Assembly: GCA_023266115.1 (NCBI GenBank)
Contig: JAHFRU010000006.1
Coordinates: 67,496-131,495 of the forward strand
DNA: 64,000 nt
Direction of reading: 5' to 3'
DNA from: Gammaproteobacteria bacterium
GTDB lineage: Bacteria; Pseudomonadota; Gammaproteobacteria; VBWC01
The translations under genes were made by a program, and so were the position numbers. Under the pieces are notes generated by a model, which saw only the letters and a program-made list of their open reading frames with translations, made no database searches and was not told the origin of the DNA. Of the stretch, positions 4,852 to 54,673 are shown piece after piece. How positions within the stretch are numbered: position 1 is the stretch's first letter; the number at the start of each line of letters is the position of its first letter.

Positions 4852-5085
4852 GGTAGTTTGACACTGCGGATTACGTCATGTGGTCTTTCGGCCGGTCGGA
4901 CGGTTCCCATTCATAACTTGCAGGCGGTTATACCGGTCAGTCCGGATAGCCAACACTAACGCCACACATGCGTCGTCACATAGATCCGGGTGCCTGGCAG
5001 GTTCCCTGGCGGCATTGCCGCCATATCCGCAGGTTGATTTATGGGATGCATGGAGGTTTAACCCTATATTGCAGGAGAGTTGCAT

Positions 5086-37109: not shown

Positions 37110-38054
37110 TCAGGCGGCGGGGGCTGCTTCGTAGGCAATGACGCAGTTGCGGCCGGCCGATTTCGCCTGGTACATGGCGACATCTGCCTTGTCGAACAGC
37201 GATTCCCGTGTGTCGGCGGCATCGGCGGTGGCAAGTCCGATGCTGACGGTGAGCGGGATGTGCCGGTTATTGGCCGTGATGGTCCTGGATTCAATTGCTT
37301 TTCGGACGCGCTCGGCAAGCAATGTCGCGCCCCTAAGTCCGGTATTGCTCAATATGATCGTAAATTCTTCGCCACCGTAGCGGAACAGGATATCGGAGCT
37401 GCGCATACATTCGGCAATGATATCGGTCACGGCCTTAAGTACATGGTCGCCGGCCAGATGCCCGTGCGTATCGTTGATCTGCTTGAATCTGTCGATATCC
37501 AGCGTGATCAACGTCAGCGGGGTCTTGTGACGCCGCGCCAGCTCAAGCTCGCGTGCCAGTGTAATGTCCATCGCGGCACGATTATTAATGCCGGTTAGCG
37601 GGTCTTTTAGAGCGGCCTGCTGAGCGTTGCGGAATAGCAATGAGTTTCGTAATGGATAAACCAGGCTGCACAGCAGCTTCTCGAGAAGCGCGGTTTCCTG
37701 CGGCGAAAATTTTTTGCTGCGGGTCAGTTTGATCTGGCCCAGTGATTGCCCGCAGACCACCAATTGATAGCTGCACGAATTCCGTGCTTTGTCGCCGACT
37801 TCGACGGTGATCTGCTGTTCCAGATAGTGATAGTGGATGCTGTGATGAGGCAGTATAGATTTGATTTCAATGGAAAATGTCTCGATTACCTTATTGACGT
37901 CCAGCGATGTCTGCAGCGCTCCCGTAATATGCAGCAGCCGATTCAGGTATTGTTTGCCAGGACCGGAATCGTCTAGCTGCGGTGACGCCGGCACCTCCAG
38001 GTTTCGCAACCCGGCGTCGTCTAGCACCGTTTTTGATTGTGTTACGCCTGACAC
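37110..38054 (-). CDS. GGDEF-domain diguanylate cyclase with an N-terminal GAF-like sensor region
   Basis: The active-site motif RYGGEEF, DIDRFKQINDTHGH and the I-site-like RESLFD are present. The ORF track extends to 38228, but those first 58 codons are extremely basic and low complexity and lie in AT-rich promoter-like DNA. The GTG at ~38054 is preceded by GGGAGAG plus 9 nt and is the more plausible start. Confidence 0.8.
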   Translation of the reverse strand: MSGVTQSKTVLDDAGLRNLEVPASPQLDDSGPGKQYLNRLLHITGALQTSLDVNKVIETFSIEIKSILPHHSIHYHYLEQQITVEVGDKARNSCSYQLVVCGQSLGQIKLTRSKKFSPQETALLEKLLCSLVYPLRNSLLFRNAQQAALKDPLTGINNRAAMDITLARELELARRHKTPLTLITLDIDRFKQINDTHGHLAGDHVLKAVTDIIAECMRSSDILFRYGGEEFTIILSNTGLRGATLLAERVRKAIESRTITANNRHIPLTVSIGLATADAADTRESLFDKADVAMYQAKSAGRNCVIAYEAAPAA

Positions 38055-38340
38055 GAGAAATATCTCTCCCAGTTGCCCTCGATGACGCCGTGGTAGACAT
38101 GCTATTTCTGTGCCATGGGTCGGGCGACGCGGATATTTGGGAATTAGATTCAGTTGGTTAGCGGTTTTTGTTATAATTCGTAAGCATTTCCGACAGCGCT
38201 TGCCAATAATCTGGCGGAAAAGTGGCATTTTATCTCCGCAACGGCGGTAATATTGCGCGAGAGTGAAGGCCGAATCTGAATGATAATTCTTTTATGACAT
38301 CTATTTTTACAATCGGGCGGCAGACGGAGTGCCGGTAGTC

Positions 38341-40089
38341 ATGGTGCGCGCTGAAGCAGTCAAAAACTTCGAAGACCTTGAGGCGTTGCTGACGACACGC
38401 AGCTGGGCGTCTCAGCCGGAGATATACCTGGGCGACGCCCTCGTCGACGGCGGGGTGATCAACCGACAGCAGTTGGCGCAGGCGCTTGAGCTGCAGCGCG
38501 AGCAGGTTGGCAAGCATCTTGGCCGTATCCTGGTCGAAATGGGTTTGATCACCACCGAGCAGATCAATACCGCGCTCGCCAGAAAATTTCATATTCCGTA
38601 CGTCAAGCTCGATGACTTCGACATATCGCCACAGATTTTGTCGCGGGTGCCAGCCGATATCGCGCTGCAATATAACTTGTTGCCGCTGGGGAAATCCGGC
38701 GGGCGCCTGATCGTTGCGATGGAGAATCCTCTCGACAGCACCGGCATCGAAGTGCTGCGCTTCAACACAAATCTAAATATTGAAACGGTCATTGCCGCCC
38801 CCGACGACATCGCCCGGGCGCGCAGCAAATACTACAGCCAGGCGGACGAGGACGCGGCGCTGGAAGACATGGCATTGCAGGCCGTTGAGGACTTCCCGGG
38901 CGGCGAAGAAGCCATCCACCTGATCGAACAGCAGGCAAAGAAGAAACCCATTGTTCGGCTGCTGAACGCCATATTGTTGCAGGCTGTGACACGTGGCGCT
39001 TCCGACATCAACATCCGTCCGGAAGGAGATCGTATCGCGATCTATTACCGTATCGATGGCAAGGTGCAGTTCTCCCGGGCGTTGCCGCGTTCCGTGCTGC
39101 CGACCCTGGTGAGTCGCGTCAAGATCATTGGTCAGATGGACATCGCTGAACGGCGCTTGCCACAGGACGGTCATGCCCGCATGGTGCGCGGCCGGCAGAC
39201 CATAGACCTGCGTATTTCCATTATTCCGACCGTCAAGGGCGAAAGCGTTGTTATCCGTATCCTCGACAAGGAAGCGGGTATGAAAACGCTTGACCGGCTT
39301 GGTATGAATCCGACCGAGGTTCACACCGTCAAACGGTTGCTGAATCGGGCCCATGGCATGTTTCTGGTAACCGGGCCGACCGGGTCCGGTAAATCAACGA
39401 CGCTTTACGCATTGCTGAACGAGCTGAAGAAACGCGGGCCGCACATTCTGACCGTCGAGGACCCTGTCGAGTATGATATCGAGAATATCGAACAGGTGCA
39501 GATTTCCAAGGTAAAAGGGACGACGTTTTCATCAGTATTGCGTCACTTCCTGCGGCATGATCCGGACGTTATTATGGTTGGCGAGATCCGCGATCAGGAA
39601 ACGGCCAAGATTGCTGCCAAGGCATCGCTGACCGGGCATCTGGTCCTGAGTACCCTGCATACCAATGATGCGGCGAGTGCCGTGACCCGTCTTGCCGATA
39701 TGGGTATTGAATCGTATCTGCTGAGCACGACGATGCTTGGCGTTATGGCGCAGCGATTGATTCGCTTGAATTGCGAGATATGCAAGGCGGATGTTCATGT
39801 CGAGCCGTATATGCGACGTGCACTGAATCTTGGCGAACACGAAAAGTTTTTCAGTGGCAAAGGCTGCATGGAGTGCAATTTTACCGGTTATCGCGGGCGT
39901 ACGTCGGCGTGCGAATTGCTGGTGGTTACACCGGAAATCGCCAATCTGATTGTTGCCGGAAAACCGAGTAACGTTATTACGGAAATGGCCGTATCACAGG
40001 GTATGACACGCTTGCGCGACAATGCCTTGAATCTGGCAAGATCAGGACGCACCTCGATCGAGGAAGTGATTGGCATCGCGCTGGAGTAG
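38341..40089 (+). CDS. MshE-like GspE/PilB-family secretion ATPase with an N-terminal MshEN c-di-GMP-binding domain (orphan)
   Basis: The N-terminus holds two tandem 24-residue repeats, YLGDALVDGGVINRQQLAQALELQ and HLGRILVEMGLITTEQINTALARK, matching the MshEN motif. The ATPase core has Walker A GPTGSGKST, the Asp box LTVEDPVEY, Walker B DPDVIMVGEIRD, the His box LVLSTLHTND and a CEIC...CMEC zinc knuckle. The start is either the GTG at 38329 or the ATG at 38341. Confidence 0.88.
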   Translation: MVRAEAVKNFEDLEALLTTRSWASQPEIYLGDALVDGGVINRQQLAQALELQREQVGKHLGRILVEMGLITTEQINTALARKFHIPYVKLDDFDISPQILSRVPADIALQYNLLPLGKSGGRLIVAMENPLDSTGIEVLRFNTNLNIETVIAAPDDIARARSKYYSQADEDAALEDMALQAVEDFPGGEEAIHLIEQQAKKKPIVRLLNAILLQAVTRGASDINIRPEGDRIAIYYRIDGKVQFSRALPRSVLPTLVSRVKIIGQMDIAERRLPQDGHARMVRGRQTIDLRISIIPTVKGESVVIRILDKEAGMKTLDRLGMNPTEVHTVKRLLNRAHGMFLVTGPTGSGKSTTLYALLNELKKRGPHILTVEDPVEYDIENIEQVQISKVKGTTFSSVLRHFLRHDPDVIMVGEIRDQETAKIAAKASLTGHLVLSTLHTNDAASAVTRLADMGIESYLLSTTMLGVMAQRLIRLNCEICKADVHVEPYMRRALNLGEHEKFFSGKGCMECNFTGYRGRTSACELLVVTPEIANLIVAGKPSNVITEMAVSQGMTRLRDNALNLARSGRTSIEEVIGIALE

Positions 40090-40095
40090 ACTTCC

Positions 40096-40112
40096 GCCTG
40101 ATGACTTCAGGC
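40096..40112. terminator. Short hairpin GCCTGA-tgact-TCAGGC in the 17-bp gap between the convergent mshE-like and hpnE genes
   Basis: An inverted repeat is seen in the sequence. It overlaps the hpnE stop codon. Confidence 0.25.
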
Positions 40113-41423
40113 AGCCCCTGATTCCTGCATGACGCCACGCGCCGCCGCGATACCGCTGCGTATCGCGCCCTCAAGTGTGGCTGGATAGCCGGTTGCCGTA
40201 TAGTCTCCCGCCAGCCACAGGCCGCGCACCGGCGTACGATTTGCCGGGCGCATGGCGTTGACCTCGGGTCGCGCAACGAAGGTTGCATGTTTCTCCCGTA
40301 TCACGTGCCAGTCGACCGGCGGTGGCCAGTGCGGAAAAAGCATGGCCATTTCACGGATGACGGTTTCCGCTAGTGTTTTTTTGTCTGCGTCCATGTGGTT
40401 GCCGGTGCCGCTGATGACCACGGCCATGAGGCCCGCCTGCCCGTTGCGAGCGCGATCAAACACCCATTGCGCGGTGGTGTCCACCAGGCCTATCAGTGGT
40501 CGGCTCAGTGTGGTTCCCGATGCATACTGTATATAGATCGTGCAGATTGGCGCCTCCGGCATTGCGCCGATCGTTTCGGCGAGCGGGAGCAGTATCGGGT
40601 GGGGTGCGAGCAAACGATGACACGTCGTCGGCGGTACAGCGAGAATGACGTGGTCCGACCAGACATTCTGGTGTGCCACGGATACCGCGCTAATCGCATG
40701 TTCGCTGATCCGCAGGGCGTTGACGCGGTGTTTCATTCGTATCGTTCCGCCGTGCGCTTCGACGTAGCGCCCCGCCGGTTCAGGAAATACTGCACCGAGA
40801 TCCCGGCGGGTGAGTAATAAATCGGCGTCGCGGGACTGACGGGTGAATACGTCGCGCATAACTCGTAGAAACAACCGTGTCGATGCTTCGTCCAGCGAGG
40901 TATTCATGGTGGCGAGACACAGGGGTTCCCATAGCCGTTGCCGCAGCGAATCCGGTTGCCGATGCTGTTCCAGCCATTGCGCGAGGCTGGTATCGCGGTC
41001 GGTGGTATCGCGCCGTAACAGCAACGAGGTGCACAGGCGTACGAGATCCATTTTTTCGCTAAAATTTATGCCGGTCGCGCGGTACAGACCGGATACCATG
41101 TGAAGCGGCGCTGGTTGCCTTGGCAGCGATATTCGGACAGGAGCTGTGCGCAGCCCGGTCATGAACAGTTCCAGCGGAAGCCGCTCGAATACGTCTTCTT
41201 CGTTGACGCCGACGATATGCATCAGGCGCAACATATCGTGATAGGCGCCGAGCATCAGGTGCTGGCCGTTATCGATGCGGTAACGATTGACCTCGACCGT
41301 GCGGGCGCGGCCGCCCAGCTGGCCGGCCGCTTCGATCACTGTGACCGGGATCCGGTGCGAAGTCAGCTCAACCGCCGCGGCCAGCCCAGCCCAGCCACCG
41401 CCGACAATAGCGACCGGCGTCAT
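40107..41423 (-). CDS. hpnE: Hydroxysqualene dehydroxylase (FAD-dependent amine-oxidase fold)
   Basis: The N-terminal Rossmann motif VAIVGGGWAGLAAA is present. The 438-aa protein is the last gene of the hpnC-hpnD-hpnE order. Confidence 0.8.
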   Translation of the reverse strand: MTPVAIVGGGWAGLAAAVELTSHRIPVTVIEAAGQLGGRARTVEVNRYRIDNGQHLMLGAYHDMLRLMHIVGVNEEDVFERLPLELFMTGLRTAPVRISLPRQPAPLHMVSGLYRATGINFSEKMDLVRLCTSLLLRRDTTDRDTSLAQWLEQHRQPDSLRQRLWEPLCLATMNTSLDEASTRLFLRVMRDVFTRQSRDADLLLTRRDLGAVFPEPAGRYVEAHGGTIRMKHRVNALRISEHAISAVSVAHQNVWSDHVILAVPPTTCHRLLAPHPILLPLAETIGAMPEAPICTIYIQYASGTTLSRPLIGLVDTTAQWVFDRARNGQAGLMAVVISGTGNHMDADKKTLAETVIREMAMLFPHWPPPVDWHVIREKHATFVARPEVNAMRPANRTPVRGLWLAGDYTATGYPATLEGAIRSGIAAARGVMQESGAA

Positions 41424-41438
41424 CGGCGGAGATACCGC

Positions 41439-42353
41439 TCAAGGCTGATGTGGATCGCGATCATGCGGATCGTTGCCACCTGATTGATTCGGCTTGCGCC
41501 GTATCTGCGCATCGCGGCGCTTTTCGCTGCGCGATGTACGCCATGCGATCCAGAGCTTGCGCAACGGCGTTAACGCGATCCGATGCTCAAGCACCCGGTA
41601 GCCGTCAACGGCGATTTCATCGAGAGTCTTCAGATAAATGGCTGCCATGATAAGTCCGGAGCGCTGCGCGTAGCGGTCAACATCCGGTAATTGCTGAAAG
41701 GCCTGCTGATAGTAGCGCCGCGCCCGCTCGCCTTGATACTCCAGCAGCTGGCGCATGTTGTCGGACATGCGATGCTCCGTGATGTCGCTGTGACTGACAC
41801 CGAAGCGCAAGACTTCGTCCAGCGGGATATACACCCGGTCGCGCCCCGCGTCTTCACGTACGTCACGCAGGATATTCGTCAATTGAAACGCCGTTCCCAG
41901 GTCCTTGGCATACTTTTGCGTTTGACGGTCCTGGTAGCCGAATATCTCGGCAGCCATCAGGCCAACGACGCCGGCGACGCGATAACAATAGAGGGCGAGT
42001 TCACGAAATGAAGGGTACGAGGAATAGGTAAGGTCCATTTCCATGCCATCGATGATTTCCTGGAAATACTCCGCCGGCAGTTCATAGCGGCGTATCGCCG
42101 GGAGCAGCGCCTTGGTCACCGGGTGTCGCGGCGCGTCGCCGAACATTCTGGCGATCTCCTCACGCCACCACTGTAACTTGGTCCGGGCGACCGCTGCATC
42201 GTGGCACTCGTCCACCACATCGTCGACCTCACGGCAAAACGCGTATAACGCAGTAATAGCCTCACGCCGTTCGGTAGGCAGGAACAGGAAGCTGTAGTAA
42301 AAGCTTGAGCCGCTCTTGGCGGCTTTGTTTTCGCAGTACTGTTGCGGGGTCAA
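41439..42353 (-). CDS. hpnD: Presqualene diphosphate synthase (squalene/phytoene synthase family)
   Basis: Two Asp-rich motifs are present (FCREVDDVVD... and ILRDVREDAGR). The N-terminus SFYYSF is typical of HpnD. Confidence 0.8.
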   Translation of the reverse strand: MTPQQYCENKAAKSGSSFYYSFLFLPTERREAITALYAFCREVDDVVDECHDAAVARTKLQWWREEIARMFGDAPRHPVTKALLPAIRRYELPAEYFQEIIDGMEMDLTYSSYPSFRELALYCYRVAGVVGLMAAEIFGYQDRQTQKYAKDLGTAFQLTNILRDVREDAGRDRVYIPLDEVLRFGVSHSDITEHRMSDNMRQLLEYQGERARRYYQQAFQQLPDVDRYAQRSGLIMAAIYLKTLDEIAVDGYRVLEHRIALTPLRKLWIAWRTSRSEKRRDAQIRRKPNQSGGNDPHDRDPHQP

Positions 42354-42483
42354 TGAGTGTTCCGTCGGTTAATGTGCCTGATGTTGCCTCGCTGCGGTGC
42401 CGTTATGGCACGAATCCCGATTGATACGGCCCGCCACGGTTGACGATGATACGGTACCAGGCCATTCTGCCGCCAGCTCGTAT

Positions 42484-43347
42484 CTATCTGCGCAGGCATG
42501 CTCGTGCAATGATGCCTATCCAGTCTTTTTTTCCGAGGCGTGGTCGGGCATAAACATCCGGTTGTGTGGCGATTGCGTCAAGCACGCGTAATCCACCCAT
42601 GACGGTGCAGCGGATTTCCAGGCCAATCCGTCCGGGCAAGCGCGCGCCAAGCGGCATTCCGGACTGCAGCAGCGTACGGGCGCGATCGGTTTGAAATGCG
42701 ATGAGCCGTTTCATCGCGGGTCCGTTCCGCTGCTGCGATATATCTGCTTCCGGAATGTCGAACTGTGCCAGCTCATCCTGCGGCAGGTAGATGCGTTTGT
42801 TTTCGTCGTAGTCCTGCCTGATATCCTGCAGAAAATTGATCAGTTGCAGCGCGGTGCAGATATTGTCGGAATCGTTTATGTTTCGGGCACTGTTTTGTCC
42901 ACATAGTTCCAATACCAGTTGCCCGATCGGGTTCGCTGAATAGCGGCAGTAACCTGACAATTCCGTGAAGCTGGCGTAACGTTTTTGTTTTACGTCCATG
43001 CGGAATGCGGTGAGCAGGTCGTGGAAATGGCCGATGGACAGTTGGTGCCGGTTTACGACATCGCATAGCGCGATAAAGATCGGCTGTTCTTCGATGATGC
43101 TGTGTTGGTTTAATGCATCCAGGGCGCGAGCATATCCGTCGAGCAACGCCAGACGTTGTTCGTCAGGGATGCCGCCTTCGTCGGCGAAGTCGTCTGCAGT
43201 GCGGGCAAAGGCGTAAATGACGCTGATCGGGCGCCGAAGTTTCGCCGGCAACAGCAGCGAGGCGACCGGGAAATTTTCATAGTGACGGCGCGTAATCGTC
43301 GCACAGTGGTCATATGCCTGGTTCAGACGTGGATCGCTGCGGGTCAT
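42484..43347 (-). CDS. hpnC: Hydroxysqualene synthase (squalene/phytoene synthase family)
   Basis: The sequence HYENFPVAS...YAFARTADDFADE...NFLQDIRQDYDENKRIYLP has the HpnC-type N-terminus. Confidence 0.8.
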   Translation of the reverse strand: MTRSDPRLNQAYDHCATITRRHYENFPVASLLLPAKLRRPISVIYAFARTADDFADEGGIPDEQRLALLDGYARALDALNQHSIIEEQPIFIALCDVVNRHQLSIGHFHDLLTAFRMDVKQKRYASFTELSGYCRYSANPIGQLVLELCGQNSARNINDSDNICTALQLINFLQDIRQDYDENKRIYLPQDELAQFDIPEADISQQRNGPAMKRLIAFQTDRARTLLQSGMPLGARLPGRIGLEIRCTVMGGLRVLDAIATQPDVYARPRLGKKDWIGIIARACLRR

Positions 43348-43589: not shown

Positions 43590-45320
43590 ATGGACTTTTC
43601 CTCGATGTTGCGCCGTCGGAAGTGGTCATTGCTTATTCTCGTCAGTATCGGGCTGGCGATAACCTTGGCGCTGGTCACCAGCTGGCCGAGTTTTTACCGT
43701 TCGACAGCGACGATTTCCATTGAGGAGTATCTGACTGCGGGCGATCTTCAAGGTATCCCGGTCGTCGAGTATGCCGCCGCGCGGCTACGACAAATTAACT
43801 CACTTACCGGTACGAAAGAAGGTCTGGCTAACATGATAACCGCTGCCGGCGTATATTCGGAAAAGCGGGGATCGGCGAACGATAACGGACTGGCGGACTT
43901 TGTGCGGCGTCGCGCGTCGATCGATCTGGTCGGTGCGAAGGTCGAGCCGGTCGACGGGGAAAGGGCCGGCAAAATGAATTTGACCTATACGGTCGCCTAC
44001 CGTGATACGGATCCGACCGTCGCGAAACAGGTGGCCGACAGCCTGGCCGAAACACATATGGCTGAGAACAGGCGGTTAATGGCAAGCAAACGCGCGGAGA
44101 GGAGCGCGCGGCTAACAGAACGTCAAGTACAGCTCGATGAGAAACGGCTGGCTTTGGGCGGTCAACTTGAAGCGATCAATAAGCGCATCGATCAATCGCG
44201 ACCGGCGGATGCCGAAAATCGAGCGTTGCAAGCGGCCGACGCGAAACAGCGCGCGGCAGCGGCCCGAACGAATCTTGACTCCACGGTGAGCAGTATCGCT
44301 GGACTGGAGGACGAGCAAGGCCGCCTGGAACACGCGCTGGCCGGGCACGAGCCGGTGATCGTGGTCACGCGTGAGGAAAAAATAGCGATCAATCTTGATG
44401 CCAGAAAGAAAGAGCTCACTATCGAACTTGAAGCAGCGACGGCGCGCCATGGGAGCAGTCACGCGGAAGTAAAGAAAATGCAGAAGTCGCTGGATGAGAT
44501 AAACCTCCGCATTCGGCAGCGGGGCGCGGCGCAAACAAAACGAGCTGAATTGAGCGAGCTGCGCAAGGTGCTCGATCGTATGCGCAAAACCAAGCCGGCC
44601 AACGATCCGGATCTCGTGATGATGGCTGAACTTGAACAAAGGTTCATGCAGGAAATCGCCACGCAGTCGCCGGAGCTGATAGAAACCCGTGTGCTCGAGA
44701 CCAAGCGCCCGAATCCTGAATATCAGTCGCTTGAAAGCAATTTGCGCGCTGTGCGGGAACGTCACAGAATGGCTGTCGAAACAGCCAATGCCTTGCGCGC
44801 TTCCGTTGGCGCGCTGGAAGAGGAGTCGGCCAGGCTGGCGGCTGCCGACCGGGACCAGGATGACTTGGTTCGGCAACGGCAGGCGCTGAAGGCGAGTTAT
44901 GCCGCGGCTGTTGCGGAACTGGAAAAATTTTCCAAAGCGAGCGATATTGCACTAGAGGACGGGGGTGGCGAGGTGACGCTCGTCAAGGCGGCGCAGTTAG
45001 CGGCCTACTCCGAAAAATCGGGTAGTTATGTTGTGTTAATTGTCGGCGTAGTTGTTTCCTTGGCGCTCGGCGTACTCTACGTGTGGTTGAGAAGTCGGGG
45101 AGATGTGGCTGTGCGGAGCATCGCTATGCTGGCGCGATTGACCGGGAAGACCCGCTCGACCGTTGTGATACCGTATATTTTCACGGAGGCGGAACTCCGG
45201 CATGTCCGGATGCGATCCGCGCTTAGCGGTGTAGCGTTGGCGGGCGGAGGGTTGCTATTAATCGCGGCCGTGAATTATGTGCGGCACCCGTTGAGCGAAT
45301 TGTTCGCCCAGCTGTTTTGA
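43590..45320 (+). CDS. Polysaccharide chain-length determinant (Wzz/GumC/EpsF-like; N- and C-terminal TM helices flanking a long coiled-coil periplasmic domain)
   Basis: The first TM helix is WSLLILVSIGLAITLALV and the last is YVVLIVGVVVSLALGVLYVWL. Between them is a ~450-aa coiled-coil-rich region and there is no kinase domain. The ORF track starts at 43485; the ATG at 43590 (MDFSSM...) follows AGGAGG. Confidence 0.78.
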   Translation: MDFSSMLRRRKWSLLILVSIGLAITLALVTSWPSFYRSTATISIEEYLTAGDLQGIPVVEYAAARLRQINSLTGTKEGLANMITAAGVYSEKRGSANDNGLADFVRRRASIDLVGAKVEPVDGERAGKMNLTYTVAYRDTDPTVAKQVADSLAETHMAENRRLMASKRAERSARLTERQVQLDEKRLALGGQLEAINKRIDQSRPADAENRALQAADAKQRAAAARTNLDSTVSSIAGLEDEQGRLEHALAGHEPVIVVTREEKIAINLDARKKELTIELEAATARHGSSHAEVKKMQKSLDEINLRIRQRGAAQTKRAELSELRKVLDRMRKTKPANDPDLVMMAELEQRFMQEIATQSPELIETRVLETKRPNPEYQSLESNLRAVRERHRMAVETANALRASVGALEEESARLAAADRDQDDLVRQRQALKASYAAAVAELEKFSKASDIALEDGGGEVTLVKAAQLAAYSEKSGSYVVLIVGVVVSLALGVLYVWLRSRGDVAVRSIAMLARLTGKTRSTVVIPYIFTEAELRHVRMRSALSGVALAGGGLLLIAAVNYVRHPLSELFAQLF

Positions 45321-45347: not shown

Positions 45348-46235
45348 ATGTCGATTTCCCGCATCGAAGAGGCGCTCCGGAAGGCGAAGGAGGCAAAGCA
45401 GGCGCCGTCGCCGGTCAGGCAGCCCGTGGATCGTGCACCGCAGGCGGCCATCCGCGAGCCCGGTAATGTCACCGTTCCGGAACCGCCCGTATCGCCGGTC
45501 GTGCGGCCCGCTGCTCGACCAGCCATTGCGCCACCCGGCATCAGTTTTCGTTTTGACGATGGACGGATAGTCAACGTACCGTTCTCCAGGCTGCGAAAGA
45601 ACCGGGTTATTACCGCAGGCGATAAAAGCAGGTGGGTCGCACGGTTCCGCGATCTTCAGCTAGCGGTTCAAGGACCCGGTCTCATTAAATCGGGTGCGCC
45701 TGTCGTCGCAGTGATGAGCGCCAACCCACGTGAGGGCAGGACATTGTGCGCGATTAATCTGGCGATGAGTCTGGCGGCGTCAAGTGCGGAGCCGGTGATA
45801 CTGATGGATATGGATTTCTTCAAGCCGGCAATGCACGCATTTCTCGAGATTTTGCCGGACACCGGATTGACGGATGTCCTGGAGGGCGGCAAGGAGATAG
45901 CGGATATCCTTGTTCGGGCAGAGGCGGAAAAGTTGATACTTGTTCCTGCGGGACCGCGATCCCGTAGCCATGTGGCGTTACTCACGCGCGACAACGTGCG
46001 TGCTGTTATCGGGAAGCTGCGGGCACTGTTTCCATCGTCTGCATTGATCGTTGACCTGCCGCCGTTGTCATTGAACATCGATACGTCAATATTCGAAGGT
46101 ATTGTCGATCACGTTGTGCTGGTGGTCGAGGAGGGGAAGACGCCGCGGGGGGATGTTCTGCGGGTATTGGGCAAGCTGAAATACGTCGAGCACGTAGAGT
46201 TGGTGTTGAACAAGGCGGTGGCAAGTAGCATCTGA
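45348..46235 (+). CDS. BY-kinase-like (CpsD/CapB/EpsG-type) P-loop ATPase with a degenerate Walker A (GR instead of GK) and no C-terminal Tyr cluster
   Basis: The catalytic-domain homology is clear: Walker A-like SANPREGRT (consensus SxxxGEGKT), Walker A-prime VILMDMDF, Walker B ALIVDLPPL and the conserved GLTDVLEGG are all present. The Walker A lysine is Arg. The C-terminus ...VELVLNKAVASSI lacks tyrosines. A Pro-rich ~120-aa N-terminal region precedes the domain. Confidence 0.75.
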   Translation: MSISRIEEALRKAKEAKQAPSPVRQPVDRAPQAAIREPGNVTVPEPPVSPVVRPAARPAIAPPGISFRFDDGRIVNVPFSRLRKNRVITAGDKSRWVARFRDLQLAVQGPGLIKSGAPVVAVMSANPREGRTLCAINLAMSLAASSAEPVILMDMDFFKPAMHAFLEILPDTGLTDVLEGGKEIADILVRAEAEKLILVPAGPRSRSHVALLTRDNVRAVIGKLRALFPSSALIVDLPPLSLNIDTSIFEGIVDHVVLVVEEGKTPRGDVLRVLGKLKYVEHVELVLNKAVASSI

Positions 46236-46392
46236 AACCAATATTATATGGCCGTCGCCCGGTGTCAGGCGACGAATATGGAACGCGGTCTGGTTGACAT
46301 CATTCGTGTTGAGATTCCCTGTCCATCTATAATATTCGCGGGGTTCTGCGATTTTCTCCCGGGTTTATTCATATGGGGTGCTATGAGCGATT

Positions 46393-47397
46393 ATGAGTAA
46401 TTCCACCGTACTGGTTGTTGGCGGCGCCGGCTATATTGGTTCGCATATGGTGAACGCATTGCTCGGGGCCGGCCATCGCGTTGTCGTGCTGGACGATTTG
46501 TCGCGAGGACATCGCGATCTGGTTCCTGGCGGGACTTTTATCGAGGGCGACCTCGGTGATCGGCCGGTGCTTGAGGATATATTCGACACTCATCGCATCG
46601 ACGCTGTCATGCATTTTGCGGCGTTGTCGCTTGTGGGCGAGTCAGTGGAAAAGCCGTTACTCTATTATCAGAATAACGTCGCGAAAACCTTGACGCTTAT
46701 TCAGCAGATGGACCTGTTTGGCGTGGACAAATTTATTTTTTCCTCGACAGCTGCGGTTTACGGCGAGAGTGGGGACGGGCCGATCGATGAAGGCCGTCGT
46801 TGTGATCCGGTAAATCCATATGGCGTTACCAAAATGGTCATCGAGCGTGTGCTCCAGGATTGCAGCCGTTCGCAGGGCATCAAGTCCGTGTGTTTACGGT
46901 ATTTCAATGCAGCCGGTGCCGACGAATCCGGCCGTCTGGGGGAGCGTCATGAACCGGAAACACACCTCATTCCAATCATATTGCAGGTCGCTGCGGGCAT
47001 TCGGGATCAGGTCAAGATATTTGGCACGGATTATCCGACACCGGACGGCACCTGTATCCGGGATTACGTGCACGTGAACGACCTCGCGCAGGCACACCTG
47101 CTGGCACTGGATTCGTTATTGGCCGGCGGGCAAAGCAGGATATACAACCTCGGTAATTCTCGCGGACGGTCCGTGCGCGAGGTGGTTGATACCGCGCGCG
47201 CGGTGACCGGGCACGCGATTCCGTGTATAGAAGCCCCCCGGCGTGCTGGCGACCCTGCGGTGCTCGTTGCTGATTCCCGAAAGATTCGTGAGGAACTGGG
47301 ATGGAAGCCGCGTTACGAAGACCTGACCACGATCATAGCCACGGCCTGGCAGTGGCATCAGCGCGAAATGGGCAGCGCCGCGGCGCGCGTCAAATGA
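46393..47397 (+). CDS. galE: UDP-glucose 4-epimerase
   Basis: The sequence [13 protein letters not shown]...YxxxK (PYGVTK) is present in a 334-aa protein with high similarity to GalE over its length. Confidence 0.9.
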
Positions 47398-47783
47398 GCC
47401 TGCGTATCCAGAACAAGCCGTTCGCTTACCTGTCGATCTTTTGGATGGCGGTCATATACTTTCTCTCGTCACGTCCCGGCAGTGATTTCCCGGCGATGTT
47501 TGTTGGCGCCGATAAACTGGTCCATTTTGCTGTTTTTGGCATGCTTGGGCCGCTGATTACAGGTGCGCTTGGTCGACCAGGAACAGGCGACCCGTGGGGC
47601 CGGATTTTGCTGGTGACGGTTGTCGTGGCACTATACGGTGTGCTGGATGAGTTCCATCAGAGCTTCGTGCCGGGGCGAACTTCGAGCGCAGGCGATGTTA
47701 TGGCGGATGCCGCGGGCGGTTTTGTCGCAACGGCCGGCGCCTATCGTTTCTGGCTGCCTTTCGACAAGGCAGGACATGGATAA
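47394..47783 (+). CDS. VanZ-family membrane protein
   Basis: The ATG overlaps the galE stop (ATGA). The 129-aa polytopic protein has the VanZ-like pattern [12 protein letters not shown]...[11 protein letters not shown]. Confidence 0.7.
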
Positions 47784-47816
47784 TCGCAAAAAATATCATC
47801 GAGTAGTGGAGGACAT

Positions 47817-49097
47817 GTGAAAACGGTTGCAGTGATAGGGTTGGGATATGTCGGATTGCCGCTTGCTATTGCATTCGGCAAAAAGTTTTCGACCATCGGT
47901 TTTGACATCAATCCGGAAAGAATACGGAGATGTCGTCAGGGCGACGGGATTGACCTGGATATTACACCGGACGATTTCAAACAGGCGCGGCTGCTCGAAA
48001 TTACCGACGATCCGGCGGCGCTGAAACGGGCAGATTACGTGGTAATTGCGGTGCCGACGCCGGTTGATGGGGCGCATCGTCCCGATTTCGGCCCGTTGAT
48101 CTCGGCAAGTACGCTGGTCGGAAAGCACCTCAAGAAAAACGCCATCGTTATATATGAGTCGACAGTGTACCCGGGGGCTACCGAGGAGGTCTGCGTGCCG
48201 GTGCTGGAGAGTCAGTCCGGAATGAAATGGCGTGAAGGTTTCAACGTCGGTTATTCTCCGGAGCGAATTAATCCGGGCGATAAGATACATACGCTGGAAA
48301 ATATCGTCAAGGTAGTTTCGGGCGATTGCGCAGCGACTCTTGATAAAGTCGCCGAATTGTATGCGAGCGTTATTACGGCGGGTGTTTGCCGAGCTTCAAG
48401 CATCAAGGCAGCCGAGGCGGCAAAAGTTATCGAAAATACGCAGCGTGACCTGAATATCGCGTTGATGAACGAGTTGGCCATGGTTTTTAACATTATGGGA
48501 ATCGATACCGTCGAGGTGCTGGAAGCGGCTGGCACGAAGTGGAATTTTCTGCCGTTCCGGCCGGGCCTCGTTGGCGGACATTGCATAGGCGTTGATCCAT
48601 ACTACCTGACACACAAGGCCGAAACGCTCGGATACCATCCGCAGGTGATACTCGCAGGTAGGCGTATCAATGACGGGATGGGCAAGTTCGTCGCCGAGCA
48701 GACCGTAAAGAAGTTGATCGCCAGTGGCAGCGCCATTCGCGGGGCCAGGGTCAGTGTGCTTGGCTTGAGTTTCAAGGAAAATTGCAATGATTTGCGCAAT
48801 ACGCGCGTCATCGATGTGATCAATGAGCTGCGTTCCTATGGCATCGACGTGTCGGTGCATGATCCAGTTGTCGATAGCGGCCATGCTCGCCATGAGTACG
48901 GTATCGACCTTGTGTCGTGGGATGATCTGCCCGTGGCCGATGCGATGGTGGTGGCAGTTGCGCATGACGCATTTACCGCCACGGACGTATCCGCTTATGC
49001 AGGCAAAATCGTCTCCGGGGGCGTTTTCGTCGACGTCAAGTCGGCTTTTGATCGGGGCGCATTGGAGAATGCTGGCCTCGAAGTGTGGAGGCTGTGA
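47817..49097 (+). CDS. Nucleotide-sugar dehydrogenase of the UDP-N-acetyl-hexosamine 6-dehydrogenase type (TviB/WbpO-like)
   Basis: A GTG start follows GGAGGA. The sequence [17 protein letters not shown] is present, and the catalytic Cys lies in [12 protein letters not shown]. At 426 aa it groups with the UDP-GlcNAc/GalNAc dehydrogenases rather than Ugd. Confidence 0.8.
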
Positions 49098-50122
49098 TGC
49101 CACGTAAAGTATTGGTTACCGGCGCTGCCGGATTCATCGGGTCGACGCTCTCGCTCAGACTTCTTGCCCACGGCGATCACGTCCATGGAATCGACAACCT
49201 GAACGACTATTACGATGTATCGCTGAAGGAGGCACGTCTGGCGCGGTGTGTTGCATCCGGGAATTTCACGTTCGACAAGCTCGATATTGCGGATCGCGCC
49301 GCGATGGCCGCGTTGTTTGGCAAGCATCGGTTTGATGTGGTCGTTAACCTGGCCGCGCAGGCTGGAGTCCGCTATTCGATTGAGAATCCGCACGCCTATA
49401 TTGACGCCAATCTGGTCGGGTTCGGCAATATCCTGGAGGGCTGCCGGCATTCGAAGGTCAAGCATCTGGTGTATGCCTCCACCAGCTCGGTCTATGGCGC
49501 CAATACCAAGTTGCCGTTCTCGGAGCACGACAACGTGGATCATCCGGTGTCACTTTACGCCGCGACGAAGAAAGCCAATGAGTTGATGGCGCACAGCTAC
49601 GCCCATCTGTACAAACTACCGGTGACGGGGCTGCGTTTCTTTACCGTATACGGTCCATGGGGCAGGCCCGACATGGCGCTGTTCAAGTTTACCAAGGGGA
49701 TTCTCGCCGACGAGCCAATCCCGGTGTTCAACAGAGGCGAGATGACGCGTGATTTTACCTATATTGACGACATCGTCGACGGAATAGCCCGGGTAATGGA
49801 CAAGGCGCCGGTTTCTGACAAGGCCTGGTCCGGCAACCACCCTGACCCGGCGACGAGCTATGCGCCGTATCGGGTATTCAATATCGGCAACAATCAACCG
49901 GAAAAGCTGATGAGGTATATCGAGGTTCTCGAGGCCGCGTTGGGCAGGAAGGCGAAACTCGATCTTTTGCCGATGCAGTTGGGAGATGTGCCGGCGACCA
50001 TGGCGGATACAACGGAACTGGAGCGTGCGGTTGGCTACAAGCCAGCGACGACGATCGAGGTAGGCGTCCGGAAATTTGTCGAGTGGTATCGGGGGTACTA
50101 CACTGGGTCGGCGCGCCGGTAA
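49097..50122 (+). CDS. NAD-dependent nucleotide-sugar 4-epimerase (extended SDR; UDP-glucuronate/UDP-HexNAcA 4-epimerase-like)
   Basis: The sequence [12 protein letters not shown]...YAATK...(YxxxK) is present. Its pairing with the upstream dehydrogenase is typical of the WbpO/WbpP or TviB/TviC pair. Start Met-5 overlaps the upstream stop. Confidence 0.8.
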
Positions 50123-50193
50123 GCAGGTTGCTATGACGACAGGGAATGCCGGATTTTGAGACGTGTAACGGAACAGCAGGGAACGGGGCGGTA

Positions 50194-51300
50194 ATGTCGG
50201 AGCGGATTGCGGGTCGTAAGGTGGCGCTGATAACCGGCGTGACAGGGCAGGATGGCGCGTATCTAGCCGAGTTTCTCTTGCAAAAAAATTATATTGTGCA
50301 CGGCATTAAACGCCGTTCGTCTTCTTTTAATACCGGTCGTATTGACCATCTTTACCAGGATCCGCACGTCCGTGACCGGCGGCTCGTGCTGCATTACGGT
50401 GACCTTGGCGACGCTACCAACCTGATCCGTATCATCCAGGAAGTCCAGCCGGACGAGATTTACAACCTGGCCGCGCAAAGCCATGTCGCGGTGTCGTTTG
50501 AAACCCCCGAGTACACCGCGAATTCCGACGCGCTGGGTACGCTGCGTCTGCTGGAGGCCATCCGGATTCTTGGTCTTGGCGGCAAGACACGGTTCTATCA
50601 GGCGTCGACCAGCGAAATGTTCGGCAAGGTTCAGGAAATTCCGCAAAAGGAAACGACGCCGTTTTATCCGCGCAGCCCATACGGCGCGGCGAAGGTATAT
50701 GCTTACTGGATTACGGTGAATTATCGCGAAGCGTACTGCATGTACGCGTGCAACGGCATCTTGTTTAATCATGAGTCGCCCATTCGTGGTGAAACGTTTG
50801 TCACACGCAAGATCACGCGTGCTGTGGCGAGGATGAAGCTGGAGCTCCAGGATAAACTGTATCTGGGAAATCTTGATGCGTTGCGGGACTGGGGCCATGC
50901 GCGTGACTACGTGGAGGCACAGTGGTTGATGCTGCAGCAGGAAGACGCGGATGATTACGTGATCGCAACCGGTCGACAGTGGTCAGTGCGTCAGTTTGTC
51001 GATGCGGCCTTTGCGGAAATTGGTGTTACGCTCGATTGGCAAGGCAAGGGAGTCGATGAAAGGGGGGTGGATTCCAGATCCGGGCGGATACTCGTTGAAG
51101 TAGATCCTCGATATTTCCGGCCTACCGAAGTCGATACATTGCTCGGTGACGCCAGCAAGGCCAAGGCAAAACTCGGGTGGTCGCCGACGACCTCGCTTGA
51201 GGAGATGGTCAGCGAGATGGTGCGTGAGGATTTAAAATCCGCCGAGAAGGATGATCTGTGCCGGCGCGAGGGCTTCCGCATCTTCGACAACATAGAATAA
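50194..51300 (+). CDS. gmd: GDP-mannose 4,6-dehydratase
   Basis: From internal Met-17 the protein begins [29 protein letters not shown] and aligns to E. coli Gmd [23 protein letters not shown]. Downstream motifs are near-identical. Confidence 0.93.
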
Positions 51301-51308
51301 TCCCGTTG

Positions 51309-52250
51309 ATGGACAAACAAGCGAAGGTCTACGTTGCAGGTCATCGCGGCCTGGTTGGCTCCGCGCTTGTCCGCAAGTTGGAGGAGAGGGGCTTCGCGAA
51401 TATTGTGACAGCGACGAGCAAACAGCTCGACCTGCGTGACAACGCGGCGGTCGCCAATTTCTTCCGCAGCAATCGGCCGGATTATGTGTATGTGGCCGCG
51501 GCCAAGGTTGGCGGCATTCTCGCCAACGATACCTATCCGGCGGAGTTTCTTTACGACAACCTCATGATTGAGGCGAATCTGATACACGAAGCCTACCGCA
51601 GCGGTGTCGAAAAGCTGCTGTTTCTGGGTAGCACCTGTATCTATCCGAAACTCGCGCCACAACCGTTGAAAGAGGAATATCTGTTAACGGGTGCTCTGGA
51701 GCCGACAAACGAGTGGTACGCGGTGGCGAAGATTACCGGCATCAAACTATGCCAGGCCTATCGCCGGCAGTACGGTTGTCGTTTTATCGCGGCGATGCCG
51801 ACGAATCTGTATGGGCCGGGGGACAATTTCGATCTGAACCGTTCGCATGTACTGCCGGCGTTGATACGCAAGTTCCACGATGCCCGGCTGAGCGGTGCGC
51901 CCACTGTAACGGTTTGGGGCACCGGCAGTCCGCGTCGCGAATTTCTGCACAGCGATGATTGCGCCGATGCTTGCCTGTTTTTGATGGGGGAGTATGATAA
52001 CGAAGGCATCATTAATATCGGCGTCGGCAAGGACATTCCGATCAGGGAGCTGGCAATGCTTGTCGGCGAGGCGGTTGGATACAGGGGCGATATTGTGTTT
52101 GACACGTCGAAGCCGGACGGTACGCCACGAAAACTGGTGGATGTCGGCAAATTGACTGCGCTGGGCTGGACCGCGTCTATTCCGCTTGCTGATGGTATCC
52201 GGCAGGCATATCGGTGGTTTCTGCAGCATCCCCCGGGCGATGCATCATGA
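51309..52250 (+). CDS. fcl: GDP-L-fucose synthase (GDP-4-keto-6-deoxymannose 3,5-epimerase/4-reductase)
   Basis: From Met-18 the protein begins MDKQAKVYVAGHRGLVGSALVRKL, and STCIYPK and YAVAKI are present. It follows gmd. Confidence 0.92.
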   Translation: MDKQAKVYVAGHRGLVGSALVRKLEERGFANIVTATSKQLDLRDNAAVANFFRSNRPDYVYVAAAKVGGILANDTYPAEFLYDNLMIEANLIHEAYRSGVEKLLFLGSTCIYPKLAPQPLKEEYLLTGALEPTNEWYAVAKITGIKLCQAYRRQYGCRFIAAMPTNLYGPGDNFDLNRSHVLPALIRKFHDARLSGAPTVTVWGTGSPRREFLHSDDCADACLFLMGEYDNEGIINIGVGKDIPIRELAMLVGEAVGYRGDIVFDTSKPDGTPRKLVDVGKLTALGWTASIPLADGIRQAYRWFLQHPPGDAS

Positions 52251-54673
52251 TGTCGCGGGTTCGTGATCGCAAAATGACAGGCGCTCGTACCGCGGTACAA
52301 TTCATTTTGGTGTTGCTGGCGATATTGCTGGTTGCGGCTTGCACTAATGTCGACGAGCGGAAGCGCGAGCATCTGCACCTGGGCAAGTCGCTGTATGAAG
52401 CCGGCGATCTGGCAAAGGCGCACACCGAGTTTACGCAGTTGCTCGCGATTGACGGTGGGGTTGCGGAAGGTTATTACTACCTCGGGCTGATTGGGGAGAA
52501 GCAGCAGAACTGGCGCGAAGCATTTGCCAATTTTCGCAAGACTATCGAGCTCGATCCCGCGCATGCGGATGCCCAAATCCGGCTCGGCCGCCTCTACCTG
52601 CTCGGACGACAAGCGGAACAGGCATTGCGCGCTGCGGACAGCGTGCTGACGCGCGAGCCAGAGAATTCGCGCGCTCTGACATTAAAAGCGGCGGCGGTTT
52701 CCCATTTGGGTGACTGGTCCGAGGCGATGCGCCTGGCCGAGTCGGCGTACCGGCTGGATCCTGGCAATGAGGACACGATTTCGCTGCTGGCGTTGATATA
52801 TCAGCACGAAAGCCTGCCGGAAAAGGCGATAGGATTTCTGGAACAAGGCATCAAGAACCTGCCACGCAGCGTGCCGTTGCGTCTTCAGCTTGCAAACGCG
52901 TTCAGTGAACGTAACGAATATGATCGTGCTGAGGTGCTGTTTCAGGAACTCGTCGCGCTGGCGCCTGAACAGACCGCCTATCGGGCGCAGTTGGCCGAGT
53001 TTTATTCGAAGCTGGGCCATCTTGATCAAGCCGAGAAGGTCTTGTGGGATGCGATAAGCGCCGATCCTGATGATGAAAGTCGGCGGTTGTTACTGGCCGA
53101 GTTTCTGGTAGCGAAGCGTAGCGCGCAGGATGCGGAGAAGGAGCTGCTCGCGTTTCTGGATGAGGAACCCGGTGCGTTTTCCGTCCGATTTCGGCTGGCC
53201 AGGCTTTACGAATCCGCAAACGAACTTGATCGGGCGGAAAAGGCCTACCGCGACATCATCAAATTAAGCCGCAGCGGTCCGGACAATGCGCTGGCGAAAA
53301 ACAAGCTGGCGCTGATATTGATGGACAAGGGCCGCAAGCCGGAAGCGTTGCAGTTGATTACGGAAATACTCGACGAAAATCACAGTAACGTCGATGCGCT
53401 CGCCATCCGGGGCAGGATGGCGCTCGCTGATCGCGATGCGGCGGGCGCGATCCGGGATTTCGAGAACGTGTTGTCGGTGCAGCCGGACGCGGTAGCCGTT
53501 GTCGGCAATCTGGCGGACGCCTATGTCGCCAATAACGAGCCGGAAAAGGCCAATGACATATTGCGCAAGGCGATCGCGGTGCATCCTCGCGCCCTTGAAG
53601 CGCGTTACGCATTAATCAACATGTTGGTGGCTGCGCAGGATTTTGCAGCGGCGGATCAGGTCGCGAAGGAGCTGCTGGCGGTTTCGCCGGGTGACATCCA
53701 GGCGCTCAAGCTGGTCGTTGACCTGCAGATTGCGCGTAAGGACTGGGCGGCGGCGGCCGGTACTGCCGAGGTAATTACGCGTACTTATCCGGACCAGGCG
53801 GTCGGCTATTTCAAGCTCGGTGAAACCCTCGGCAAGCAAGGCAAGCTCGATGCGGCAATCAAGCAGTATGTGATCGCCGTCGAGAAGGCGCCCGAGGTGT
53901 TCGAAACAAACGCGGCGGTTGTTCGTGGTTATCTCGCGACGAACAGCCCGGCGCCCGCCATGCAGCATGTGCAGCGCTTTATCAAGGCGTATCCGGCCAG
54001 CGCGGGCGCCTACGATCTGCTCGGTGAGGTGTATCTCTACCAGAACAAGGAAAAAGAGGCGATTACGGCGTTTCGCAAGGCGATAAACCTGAATCCGAAG
54101 CAGCCGGAACCCTACAGAAATCTGACCAATCTCTACACGGTGCGCGGTGATCTGGATAGCGCGATCGCCGTTTACAAGGAGGCGCTCGCCATCGCACCTG
54201 GAAAATCCCAGTTGGCGATGTTGCTGGCCGGTGCGTATGAGAGTAACGGTCAGTTTGACGATGCCATGCAGACGTACGAGGGAATAGTCACGCGGAATCC
54301 GGCGCAGTCCGATGCGGCCAACCGGCTGGCGCGGCTGTTGACCGAGCGCCGCGGCGATCCTGCTGCATTGCGCAAGGCGCTGGATTACGCCAGGGGGTTT
54401 GAGGGTTCGACCAATCCCGAGTATCTGGACACGCTTGGCTGGATCCACTATCACCAGGGCGACGCTATCGCAGCGATCGCCAGGTTAAAGAACGCAGCGG
54501 AGCTGGCGCCACAGATTCCGTTGCTGCAATACCATCTGGGTATGGCATACGCGTTGAACCAGCAGAACGAAGAGGCGGTGGCCCACCTGCGGCGCGCCGT
54601 TGATGCCGGTCAGGAATTTACCGGTCTGGCGGTTGCCCGGGAGACACTGGAAAGGCTGGCCCCTGCTCAGTGA
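52247..54673 (+). CDS. Large TPR-repeat lipoprotein (PrsT-like, of the type found in PEP-CTERM/exosortase EPS loci)
   Basis: The lipobox LLVAAC follows a basic N-region. About 800 aa are made almost entirely of TPR-like repeats. The start is near 52247-52274. Confidence 0.7.
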   Translation: MMSRVRDRKMTGARTAVQFILVLLAILLVAACTNVDERKREHLHLGKSLYEAGDLAKAHTEFTQLLAIDGGVAEGYYYLGLIGEKQQNWREAFANFRKTIELDPAHADAQIRLGRLYLLGRQAEQALRAADSVLTREPENSRALTLKAAAVSHLGDWSEAMRLAESAYRLDPGNEDTISLLALIYQHESLPEKAIGFLEQGIKNLPRSVPLRLQLANAFSERNEYDRAEVLFQELVALAPEQTAYRAQLAEFYSKLGHLDQAEKVLWDAISADPDDESRRLLLAEFLVAKRSAQDAEKELLAFLDEEPGAFSVRFRLARLYESANELDRAEKAYRDIIKLSRSGPDNALAKNKLALILMDKGRKPEALQLITEILDENHSNVDALAIRGRMALADRDAAGAIRDFENVLSVQPDAVAVVGNLADAYVANNEPEKANDILRKAIAVHPRALEARYALINMLVAAQDFAAADQVAKELLAVSPGDIQALKLVVDLQIARKDWAAAAGTAEVITRTYPDQAVGYFKLGETLGKQGKLDAAIKQYVIAVEKAPEVFETNAAVVRGYLATNSPAPAMQHVQRFIKAYPASAGAYDLLGEVYLYQNKEKEAITAFRKAINLNPKQPEPYRNLTNLYTVRGDLDSAIAVYKEALAIAPGKSQLAMLLAGAYESNGQFDDAMQTYEGIVTRNPAQSDAANRLARLLTERRGDPAALRKALDYARGFEGSTNPEYLDTLGWIHYHQGDAIAAIARLKNAAELAPQIPLLQYHLGMAYALNQQNEEAVAHLRRAVDAGQEFTGLAVARETLERLAPAQ

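Follow-up and report, generated by a model that had tools for sequence, protein, structure and literature searches.

A stretch of 64,000 nucleotides from a gammaproteobacterium of the GTDB lineage VBWC01 (GCA_023266115.1, contig JAHFRU010000006.1, positions 67,496 to 131,495 of the forward strand; hereafter the window) carries two neighbouring genes, the first coding for a polysaccharide co-polymerase (PCP) of 576 amino acids and the second, 27 nt behind its stop codon, for a protein of 295 amino acids that resembles the catalytic domain of bacterial tyrosine kinases (BY-kinases). On balance, the kinase-like protein is probably a BY pseudokinase-type cytoplasmic partner of the adjacent PCP that still binds nucleotide. 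The role of pseudokinase partner of a Wzz-like protein, proposed in the initial annotation, is supported by the fold, by an exchange of the catalytic Lys for Arg, by the absence of a tyrosine tail and by the conserved adjacency to a PCP without a kinase domain. The elements of the kinase-like gene are as follows (positions counted from the first letter of the window):

45348–46235, plus strand: BY-kinase-like protein, candidate BY pseudokinase (295 amino acids plus stop; open reading frame list, family models, alignment and predicted fold)
45354–45398, plus strand: conserved N-terminal helix ISRIEEALRKAKEAK, residues 3–17 (AlphaFold2 model)
45399–45536, plus strand: Pro-rich linker of low confidence, residues 18–63, with 13 Pro (predicted local distance difference test score, pLDDT, 48–59; composition)
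45588–45605, plus strand: basic RLRKNR block, residues 81–86, invariant in the clade defined below (clade alignment)
45639–45659, plus strand: degenerate ExxRxxR oligomerisation motif ARFRDLQ, residues 98–104 (comparison with relatives)
45717–45743, plus strand: variant P-loop SANPREGRT, residues 124–132 (alignments)
45795–45827, plus strand: Walker A' region VILMDMDFFKP, residues 150–160 (Asp pair kept, Arg of the motif replaced by Phe)
46041–46064, plus strand: intact Walker B motif ALIVDLPP, residues 232–239 (D236, P238 and P239 invariant in 121 sequences)
46203–46217, plus strand: VLNKA block near the C-terminus, residues 286–290, followed by only five residues (L287, N288 and K289 invariant in 121 sequences)

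The kinase-like protein reached the gathering score of no Pfam model. Its best NCBIfam match was TIGR03018 (XrtA-associated tyrosine autokinase), with 132.4 bits against a curated cutoff of 230.65, and the general BY-kinase model TIGR01007 gave 81 bits against 108. When all PDB chains were searched with phmmer, residues 114–279 were aligned to the kinase domains of VpsO (E 3e-14), CapB (4e-9), BceF, Etk and Wzc, with SANPREGRT placed on SCLPGEGKT or SEAPGAGKS, DMDFFKP on DCDLRKP or DGDMRKP, and VDLPP on IDTPP. A structure model was obtained with AlphaFold2 from an alignment of 121 homologues (mean pLDDT 83.4); the best PDB matches returned for it by Foldseek were the kinase domains of Etk, Wzc, CapAB, VpsO and BceF, each with a probability of 1.00. 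The protein has the P-loop/Rossmann-like catalytic-domain fold of BY-kinases, and the position-for-position correspondence first read from the letters is borne out by the phmmer register and by the Foldseek result. Two other assignments were discarded. A MinD/ParA-type ATPase was rejected on a score of 19.4 bits with the MinD model (cutoff 212.9) and for want of a KGG signature; membership in the "KGGVGR-motif variant AAA ATPase" family (NF047398) was rejected on 18.2 bits (cutoff 90) and for want of a deviant Walker A motif of the form KGGxxK/R.

Close relatives were collected by a word-indexed search of 5.8 billion clusters. Four were recovered, with 91, 58, 51 and 57% identity, and the next matches lay at or below 35%; the four relatives and the window protein are termed the clade. 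The N-terminal helix is kept across the clade, and Lys-bearing relatives as well as true members of TIGR03018 have comparable N-termini. The linker that follows differs in length between orthologues. Since the folded domain opens near residue 64 with a beta-hairpin in the AlphaFold2 model, the Pro-rich N-terminal segment is not about 120 residues long, as had been estimated, and shrinks to some 45 residues (18–63) behind the helix.

The motif definitions of BY-kinases were taken from the literature (PMC9800525). At the position of the catalytic Lys of Walker A (GX5GK[ST]), the window protein has Arg131 (codon AGG at 45738–45740), in register with the kinases of known structure, which confirms the exchange noticed at the outset; Gly130 and Thr132 of the P-loop are retained. 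All five clade members, from independent assemblies, have SANPREGRT and thus Arg at this position. The loss of Gly at position −3 of "PGEGK", likewise listed as a deviation in the initial annotation, does not discriminate. Lys-bearing relatives read SANPREGKT, SALPREGKT or SSLPREGKT (P0172 has the first of these, the Lys version of the exact P-loop of the clade), and Wzc of E. coli has Ser at this position (GVSPSIGKT; PMC9800525). Gly-to-Arg at −3 was therefore dismissed as a sign of inactivation, and only the Lys-to-Arg exchange is diagnostic, because the Gly varies in relatives that keep the Lys.

Walker A' had been reported as present, which holds for its Asp pair (D154, D156) and not for the Arg of DxDxR, replaced by Phe or Tyr in the clade; on a crude regular-expression reading, this Arg position is possibly variable in relatives too. 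Walker B, as had been stated, is there in full, with four hydrophobic residues followed by DxxP. The oligomerisation motif ExxRxxR is not preserved: relatives show D-x-x-K-x-x-R, whereas the clade shows A/D-x-x-R/Q/K-x-x-Q/H, with the last Arg changed to Gln or His in every member. Of the RLRKNR block, L82, R83 and R86 are kept relative to the Lys-bearing relatives; judged by its position, it is possibly equivalent to the RK-cluster or arginine finger of Wzc (PMC9800525). Within the clade, at 51–57% overall identity, the ten-residue P-loop block S124–L133, DLPPLS, VLNKA and RLRKNR are all invariant.

The C-terminus of the kinase-like protein (...VLNKAVASSI) contains no Tyr, and the final 25 residues are free of Tyr in every clade member, so the C-terminal tyrosine cluster of BY-kinases is missing throughout. 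The only Tyr of the window protein, Y279, is replaced by Asn in the closest orthologue; the 91%-identical orthologue (P0001) has no Tyr in its whole length, and the clade alignment shows no invariant Tyr column. The missing Tyr-rich tail, noted from the start, was thus found again, with one non-conserved Tyr in the window protein and none in P0001. Because no Tyr is conserved and one orthologue has none, the protein does not appear to be a tyrosine autokinase; the sequences argue against autophosphorylation on tyrosine, which would be impossible for P0001.

Both the Lys-to-Arg exchange and the absence of the tyrosine cluster are shared by all four orthologues (51–91% identical), the comparison that the initial annotation had proposed as a check. 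Among 274 related domains, the Walker A position is occupied by Lys in 264, by Arg in 7 and is degenerate in 3. The seven Arg cases are the five clade members and two independent ones, P0159 (SPREGEGRT) and P0222 (SARRGEGRT). In P0121 and P0122, a canonical kinase-like domain comes after a degenerate one, and in P0238 an AAA_22-like ATPase is fused to a kinase-like domain whose P-loop reads GAGTT. Within the clade, the Arg is encoded by AGG in three lineages and by CGT in a fourth; to reach any Lys codon from CGT takes two substitutions, and the Arg itself is therefore under selection. The reading frame is intact in all members, with pairwise ratios of nonsynonymous to synonymous substitution (dN/dS) of 0.19–0.31, which indicate purifying selection. 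An error of sequencing or assembly that turned a Lys codon into Arg, which had been named as grounds for withdrawing the claim, or a decaying pseudogene would be conceivable in that AGG is a single transition from AAG; with Arg in five independent assemblies, once as CGT, intact frames and these dN/dS values, such an artefact was ruled out and has practically no chance of being the explanation. An additional P-loop Arg that might compensate for the lost Lys was seen in 3 of 3 independent Lys-to-Arg lineages and in 29 of 264 Lys-type domains; this count was not relied on, because the hit list had been ranked with a profile made from clade sequences, which favours P-loops of this kind.

The clade is extremely rare. 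Searched exhaustively with a HMMER profile, 1.84 billion representatives yielded only two clade clusters (440 and 423 bits), after which the score dropped to 169 bits. When one genome per GTDB species was scanned, the sole match was a metagenome-assembled genome (MAG) of VBWC01, "Gammaproteobacteria bacterium X1_MaxBin.010" (GCA_006218035.1). No clade member was found in a scan of JGI metagenome contigs, and an exact-sequence look-up of the window protein returned no record. In all, the clade extends over one MAG species and three raw-read assemblies.

The nearest Lys-bearing homologues are P0021 (Nitrospira lenta) and P0008 (a gammaproteobacterial MAG), each encoded directly behind a PCP of 590 amino acids. 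Both loci also contain a short outer-membrane polysaccharide export (OPX) protein, a beta-barrel protein and an AAA_22 ATPase, and that of Nitrospira lenta additionally an exosortase EpsH/EpsI and a tetratricopeptide repeat (TPR) protein. With TIGR03018, the orthologues score 127–153 bits, the tail-less Lys-bearing relatives 168–194 bits, and the tailed P0097, a true member of the family with a Tyr-rich C-terminal tail, 249.8 bits. Of the 120 best matches of the kinase-like protein, 109 lack Tyr throughout their final 25 residues. Since loss of the tail is common to a large set of relatives, only two features are specific to the narrow clade, the exchange of Lys for Arg and the lost ExxRxxR motif. 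Where they are named, P0005–P0120 are mostly called "CpsD/CapB family tyrosine-protein kinase", with a canonical GK[ST] P-loop. Because most of the nearest homologues are without any Tyr tail, this annotation is doubtful, and to judge from the sequences the name is probably wrong for many of those in exosortase loci.

The gene upstream was analysed in the same way, and its elements are the following:

43590–45320, plus strand: kinase-less polysaccharide co-polymerase, PCP-2-like, of the XrtA/PEP-CTERM type, 576 amino acids (ATG at 43590; the mechanical open reading frame starts with TTG at 43485)
43626–43682, plus strand: hydrophobic segment 1 (TM1; Kyte-Doolittle value of 2.32 in a 19-residue window)
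45030–45086, plus strand: hydrophobic segment 2 (TM2; Kyte-Doolittle value of 2.70)
45087–45215, plus strand: post-TM2 segment RSRGDVAVRSIAMLARLTGKTRSTVVIPYIFTEAELRHVRMR, about 43 residues, presumed cytoplasmic (conserved with PCPs of XrtA loci)
45216–45272, plus strand: third hydrophobic segment near the C-terminus (Kyte-Doolittle value of 1.98; also present in PCPs of XrtA loci)

The start codon was assigned from relatives, which begin at the ATG equivalent to 43590. TIGR03007 (pepcterm_ChnLen, the chain-length determinant of the XrtA system) matched the PCP with E 3e-22 and 78.5 bits against a cutoff of 278.85, and Pfam Wzz gave a weak match. From end to end, the protein is collinear with the 590-residue PCPs of two XrtA (exosortase) loci (L008, L009), the post-TM2 and third hydrophobic segments included. 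TM1 and TM2 flank a long coiled region. The post-TM2 segment follows a pattern common to the PCPs of XrtA loci, D..[VI]R[SG]...L..LTG....V[IV]P[YF], and, by analogy with the pairs CapA/CapB and EpsV/EcpK (PMC12004946), is a candidate for the peptide on which the kinase-like protein would dock. Behind the third hydrophobic segment, which may span the membrane or be re-entrant, the PCP has the conserved PL..L..[LW]F end of L008 and L009. It terminates about 15 residues past that segment and has no kinase domain. The position of the kinase-like gene directly behind this Wzz-like membrane protein was correctly described at the outset, and the adjacency of the two genes is kept in every relative of the clade.

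Further features of the same region, all on the plus strand and downstream of the kinase-like gene, are listed here:

46336–46351, plus strand: weak hairpin resembling a terminator, in the gap of 157 nt ahead of galE (consensus scan only)
46393–52250, plus strand: nucleotide-sugar genes galE, vanZ, TviB-like UDP-sugar dehydrogenase, TviC-like epimerase, gmd and fcl (NCBIfam)
52214–54673, plus strand: PrsT-like TPR lipoprotein, 819 amino acids (TIGR02917, 287.1 bits against a cutoff of 312.2)

A bicistronic unit of their own may be formed by the genes for the PCP and the kinase-like protein. The PrsT-like lipoprotein is collinear with a TPR protein encoded in the XrtA/exosortase locus of Nitrospira lenta (32% identity over 787 amino acids). 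The gene order MshE-like ATPase, hpnE-D-C, PCP, kinase-like protein, sugar genes, TPR protein and rmuC is identical in two relatives with contigs that span it; in two relatives on shorter contigs, it agrees over the part covered. Neither a second kinase-like open reading frame nor a low-molecular-weight phosphotyrosine phosphatase was found in the window. The same holds for an exosortase, an OPX protein, a PEP-CTERM beta-barrel protein, an AAA_22 ATPase and an open reading frame with a PEP-CTERM tail, as well as for glycosyltransferases, a flippase and a polymerase. Since none of it lies within these 64 kb, the rest of the polysaccharide pathway must be encoded elsewhere.

Several other features of the window were recorded. 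The hopanoid/squalene genes hpnE, hpnD and hpnC (40107–43347, minus strand) score above their NCBIfam cutoffs and diverge from the PCP gene. Upstream of the hpnCDE/PCP locus are a gene for an MshE-like type II/IV secretion ATPase whose MshEN domain is of the c-di-GMP-binding kind (38329–40089, plus strand) and a GGDEF diguanylate cyclase gene (37110–38228, minus strand). Both occupy the same position in relatives where the contigs extend that far, and a link of c-di-GMP to the polysaccharide genes is possible. The VanZ-family open reading frame (47301–47783, plus strand) is listed with 160 amino acids and overlaps the end of galE; its true start is probably further downstream, because the product in the relatives has 129 amino acids. 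The sole Rfam match in the window was a t44 small RNA (RF00127) at 4945–5062 on the plus strand (67.6 bits, the gathering score being 44); tRNA genes were not found there.

Pairs of a BY pseudokinase and a kinase-less PCP-2 have been described before: EcpK/EpsV of Myxococcus xanthus was shown experimentally in 2025, and HfsB/HfsA as well as pairs predicted from sequence in several Gram-negative bacteria are further instances (PMC12004946). Of the features of this class, a BY-kinase fold without the catalytic residue and without a Tyr tail, and a PCP-2 partner without a kinase domain, are found here. From canonical BY-kinases, the protein is separated by the missing Lys, tyrosine cluster and ExxRxxR motif, and from TIGR03018 by score and by the missing tail. 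EcpK, like the protein described here, is a stand-alone BY-kinase fold without catalytic Lys or Tyr tail, is paired with a kinase-less PCP-2 and has been proposed to be a scaffold acting through the cytoplasmic C-terminal segment of its PCP (PMC12004946); the likeness lies in motifs and pairing, not in sequence relatedness. [quoted passage not shown] HfsB, which serves holdfast export in Caulobacter crescentus, is likewise a stand-alone kinase-like protein without catalytic residues and Tyr tail, next to the kinase-less PCP-2 HfsA; both are required for polysaccharide production, and HfsA is stabilised by HfsB (PMC12004946). This pair belongs to another lineage and another pathway, and the motif state of HfsB is taken from a published summary (PMC12004946).

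The family models point to the XrtA system. TIGR03018 and TIGR03007 are the best-scoring families for the two proteins, and the N-terminal helix, the domain order and the PCP architecture agree with them; the PrsT-like TPR protein lies in the operon, and the nearest relatives are found in exosortase loci. Different from this system are scores far below the cutoffs (132 against 230.65 and 78.5 against 278.85), the Lys-to-Arg exchange, the missing Tyr-rich tail, and a window in which the other typical genes of XrtA loci were not found. The closest homologues outside the clade (30–35% identity) are "CpsD/CapB family" proteins without a tail, encoded in XrtA loci of Nitrospira and others (for instance P0021 and P0008); they share its length class, its lack of a Tyr tail and the upstream PCP of 590 amino acids, and differ in that GEGK[ST], DxDxR and D/ExxKxxR are kept. 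CapB1 of Staphylococcus aureus is a catalytically silent kinase fold that was crystallised with ADP-Mg (PDB 4jlv) and proposed to be pseudokinase-like; it is counted as a tyrosine-kinase paralogue in the title of PMC3795738 and coexists with an active paralogue, CapB2. It is a precedent for a silent BY-kinase fold that retains nucleotide. GumC of Xanthomonas, termed a "pseudo-BY-kinase", also controls chain length independently of phosphorylation with a kinase-like cytosolic domain that lacks the Y-cluster; in GumC this domain is fused to the PCP, and here it is a separate protein (PMC9800525). In the literature, no paper was found that joins PEP-CTERM, tyrosine kinase and chain-length determinant. 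The protein stands apart from the known pairs by its XrtA-associated origin, its nearly intact pocket and its extreme rarity.

The consequences of the motif states can be estimated from related proteins. ATPase activity was lost in Wzc K540M and ExoP K589I, with kinase activity lost in ExoP and reduced in Wzc (PMC9800525), and Rad51-K191R had a roughly six-fold lower affinity for ATP and an ATPase at background (PMC1919488). By analogy, the Lys-to-Arg exchange should remove or strongly reduce phosphoryl transfer in the kinase-like protein. The P-loop Gly-x-Thr, the Asp pair of Walker A', the Asp of Walker B, the LNK block and RLRKNR are invariant in the clade; since these are all the pocket elements except the Lys, the protein probably still binds ATP or ADP. 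Such an invariant pocket at this level of overall divergence would be unexpected had the pocket been abandoned, and argues for continued selection on it. VpsO with a mutated ExxRxxR motif loses function (PMC9800525), and the loss of this motif in the clade suggests that it is the PCP, rather than a ring of kinases, that dictates oligomerisation.

Two considerations weigh against the favoured reading, a nucleotide-binding partner that does not phosphorylate. The active site is near-intact (Asp pair, Walker B, P-loop Thr, basic block), unlike that of the dead EcpK, so that residual or rewired ATPase activity is possible; and glycosyltransferases, flippase, polymerase, OPX protein and exosortase are absent from the window, so that the pathway is assigned through homology to genes of XrtA loci, all of them below NCBIfam cutoffs. 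The main alternative, though rather unlikely, is that the protein is still an active ATPase, in which Arg131, perhaps with Arg128 of the P-loop and RLRKNR, replaces the Lys, and hydrolysis drives assembly and disassembly of the PCP as a switch of the MinD/ParA type. The tail-less Lys-bearing relatives of exosortase loci would then work likewise, and with 109 of the 120 nearest homologues tail-less, an ATPase-only mode is plausible for the whole family; every other catalytic element is invariant in the clade, and Arg at −3 co-occurs with Lys in relatives (SANPREGKT). This has to be set against the retention of the Walker A Lys in 264 of the 274 related domains and against the effect of its exchange for Arg or Met, which abolished or strongly cut ATPase activity in the P-loop proteins tested (Wzc K540M, ExoP K589I, Rad51-K191R).

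The opposite extreme, an inert structural remnant that binds no nucleotide, as with EcpK, would accommodate the Lys-to-Arg exchange together with the lost Arg of Walker A' and the lost ExxRxxR; the ten-residue P-loop, Walker B and LNK blocks that stay invariant at 51–57% overall identity make it improbable. BY-kinases phosphorylate other proteins as well, and a tyrosine kinase that acts exclusively in trans, with the PCP or other proteins as substrates, would need no Tyr tail of its own; the post-TM2 segment of the PCP does contain one Tyr (IPYIF). That residue is Phe, however, in a Lys-bearing relative (VPFM, L008), the catalytic Lys is gone, no phosphotyrosine phosphatase is encoded nearby in the window, and ExxRxxR, the motif of ring formation on which efficient kinase activity depends, is degenerate, so that this last alternative is more improbable still than the inert remnant.

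If the kinase-like protein is the nucleotide-binding pseudokinase partner favoured here, the soluble protein would dock on the segment of the PCP that follows TM2, as CapB does on CapA and EcpK on EpsV. Its binding and unbinding would help to set the oligomeric, active state of the PCP without tyrosine phosphorylation. ATP or ADP would probably still be bound, and hydrolysis strongly reduced by the Lys-to-Arg exchange. The setting would be a pathway for polysaccharide export that descends from the XrtA/PEP-CTERM type.

PCP-2 co-polymerases are thought to cycle between oligomeric states under the control of tyrosine phosphorylation. To our knowledge, few pseudokinase partners of PCP-2 proteins are known, and none has been studied biochemically. 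Such partners show that control of a PCP-2 is workable without phosphorylation. The clade differs from an active relative essentially by one catalytic residue and the absence of tyrosines; because the remaining pocket residues are conserved, nature would here offer a clean test of whether the binding of nucleotide by itself suffices for scaffold function. A more specific proposal, tentative and somewhat doubtful, is that the clade represents a natural, "K-to-R locked" BY-kinase homologue, in which the pocket is kept in full, ATP is bound, the phosphate is not passed on, and occupancy itself, instead of hydrolysis or tyrosine phosphorylation, gates the assembly of an XrtA-type PCP. Were this so, the clade would be an evolutionary intermediate between the tail-less, Lys-bearing, ATPase-like partners of exosortase loci and fully degenerate pseudokinases such as EcpK, and would provide a ready-made system in which nucleotide binding is separated from phosphotransfer in the regulation of PCP-2 proteins.

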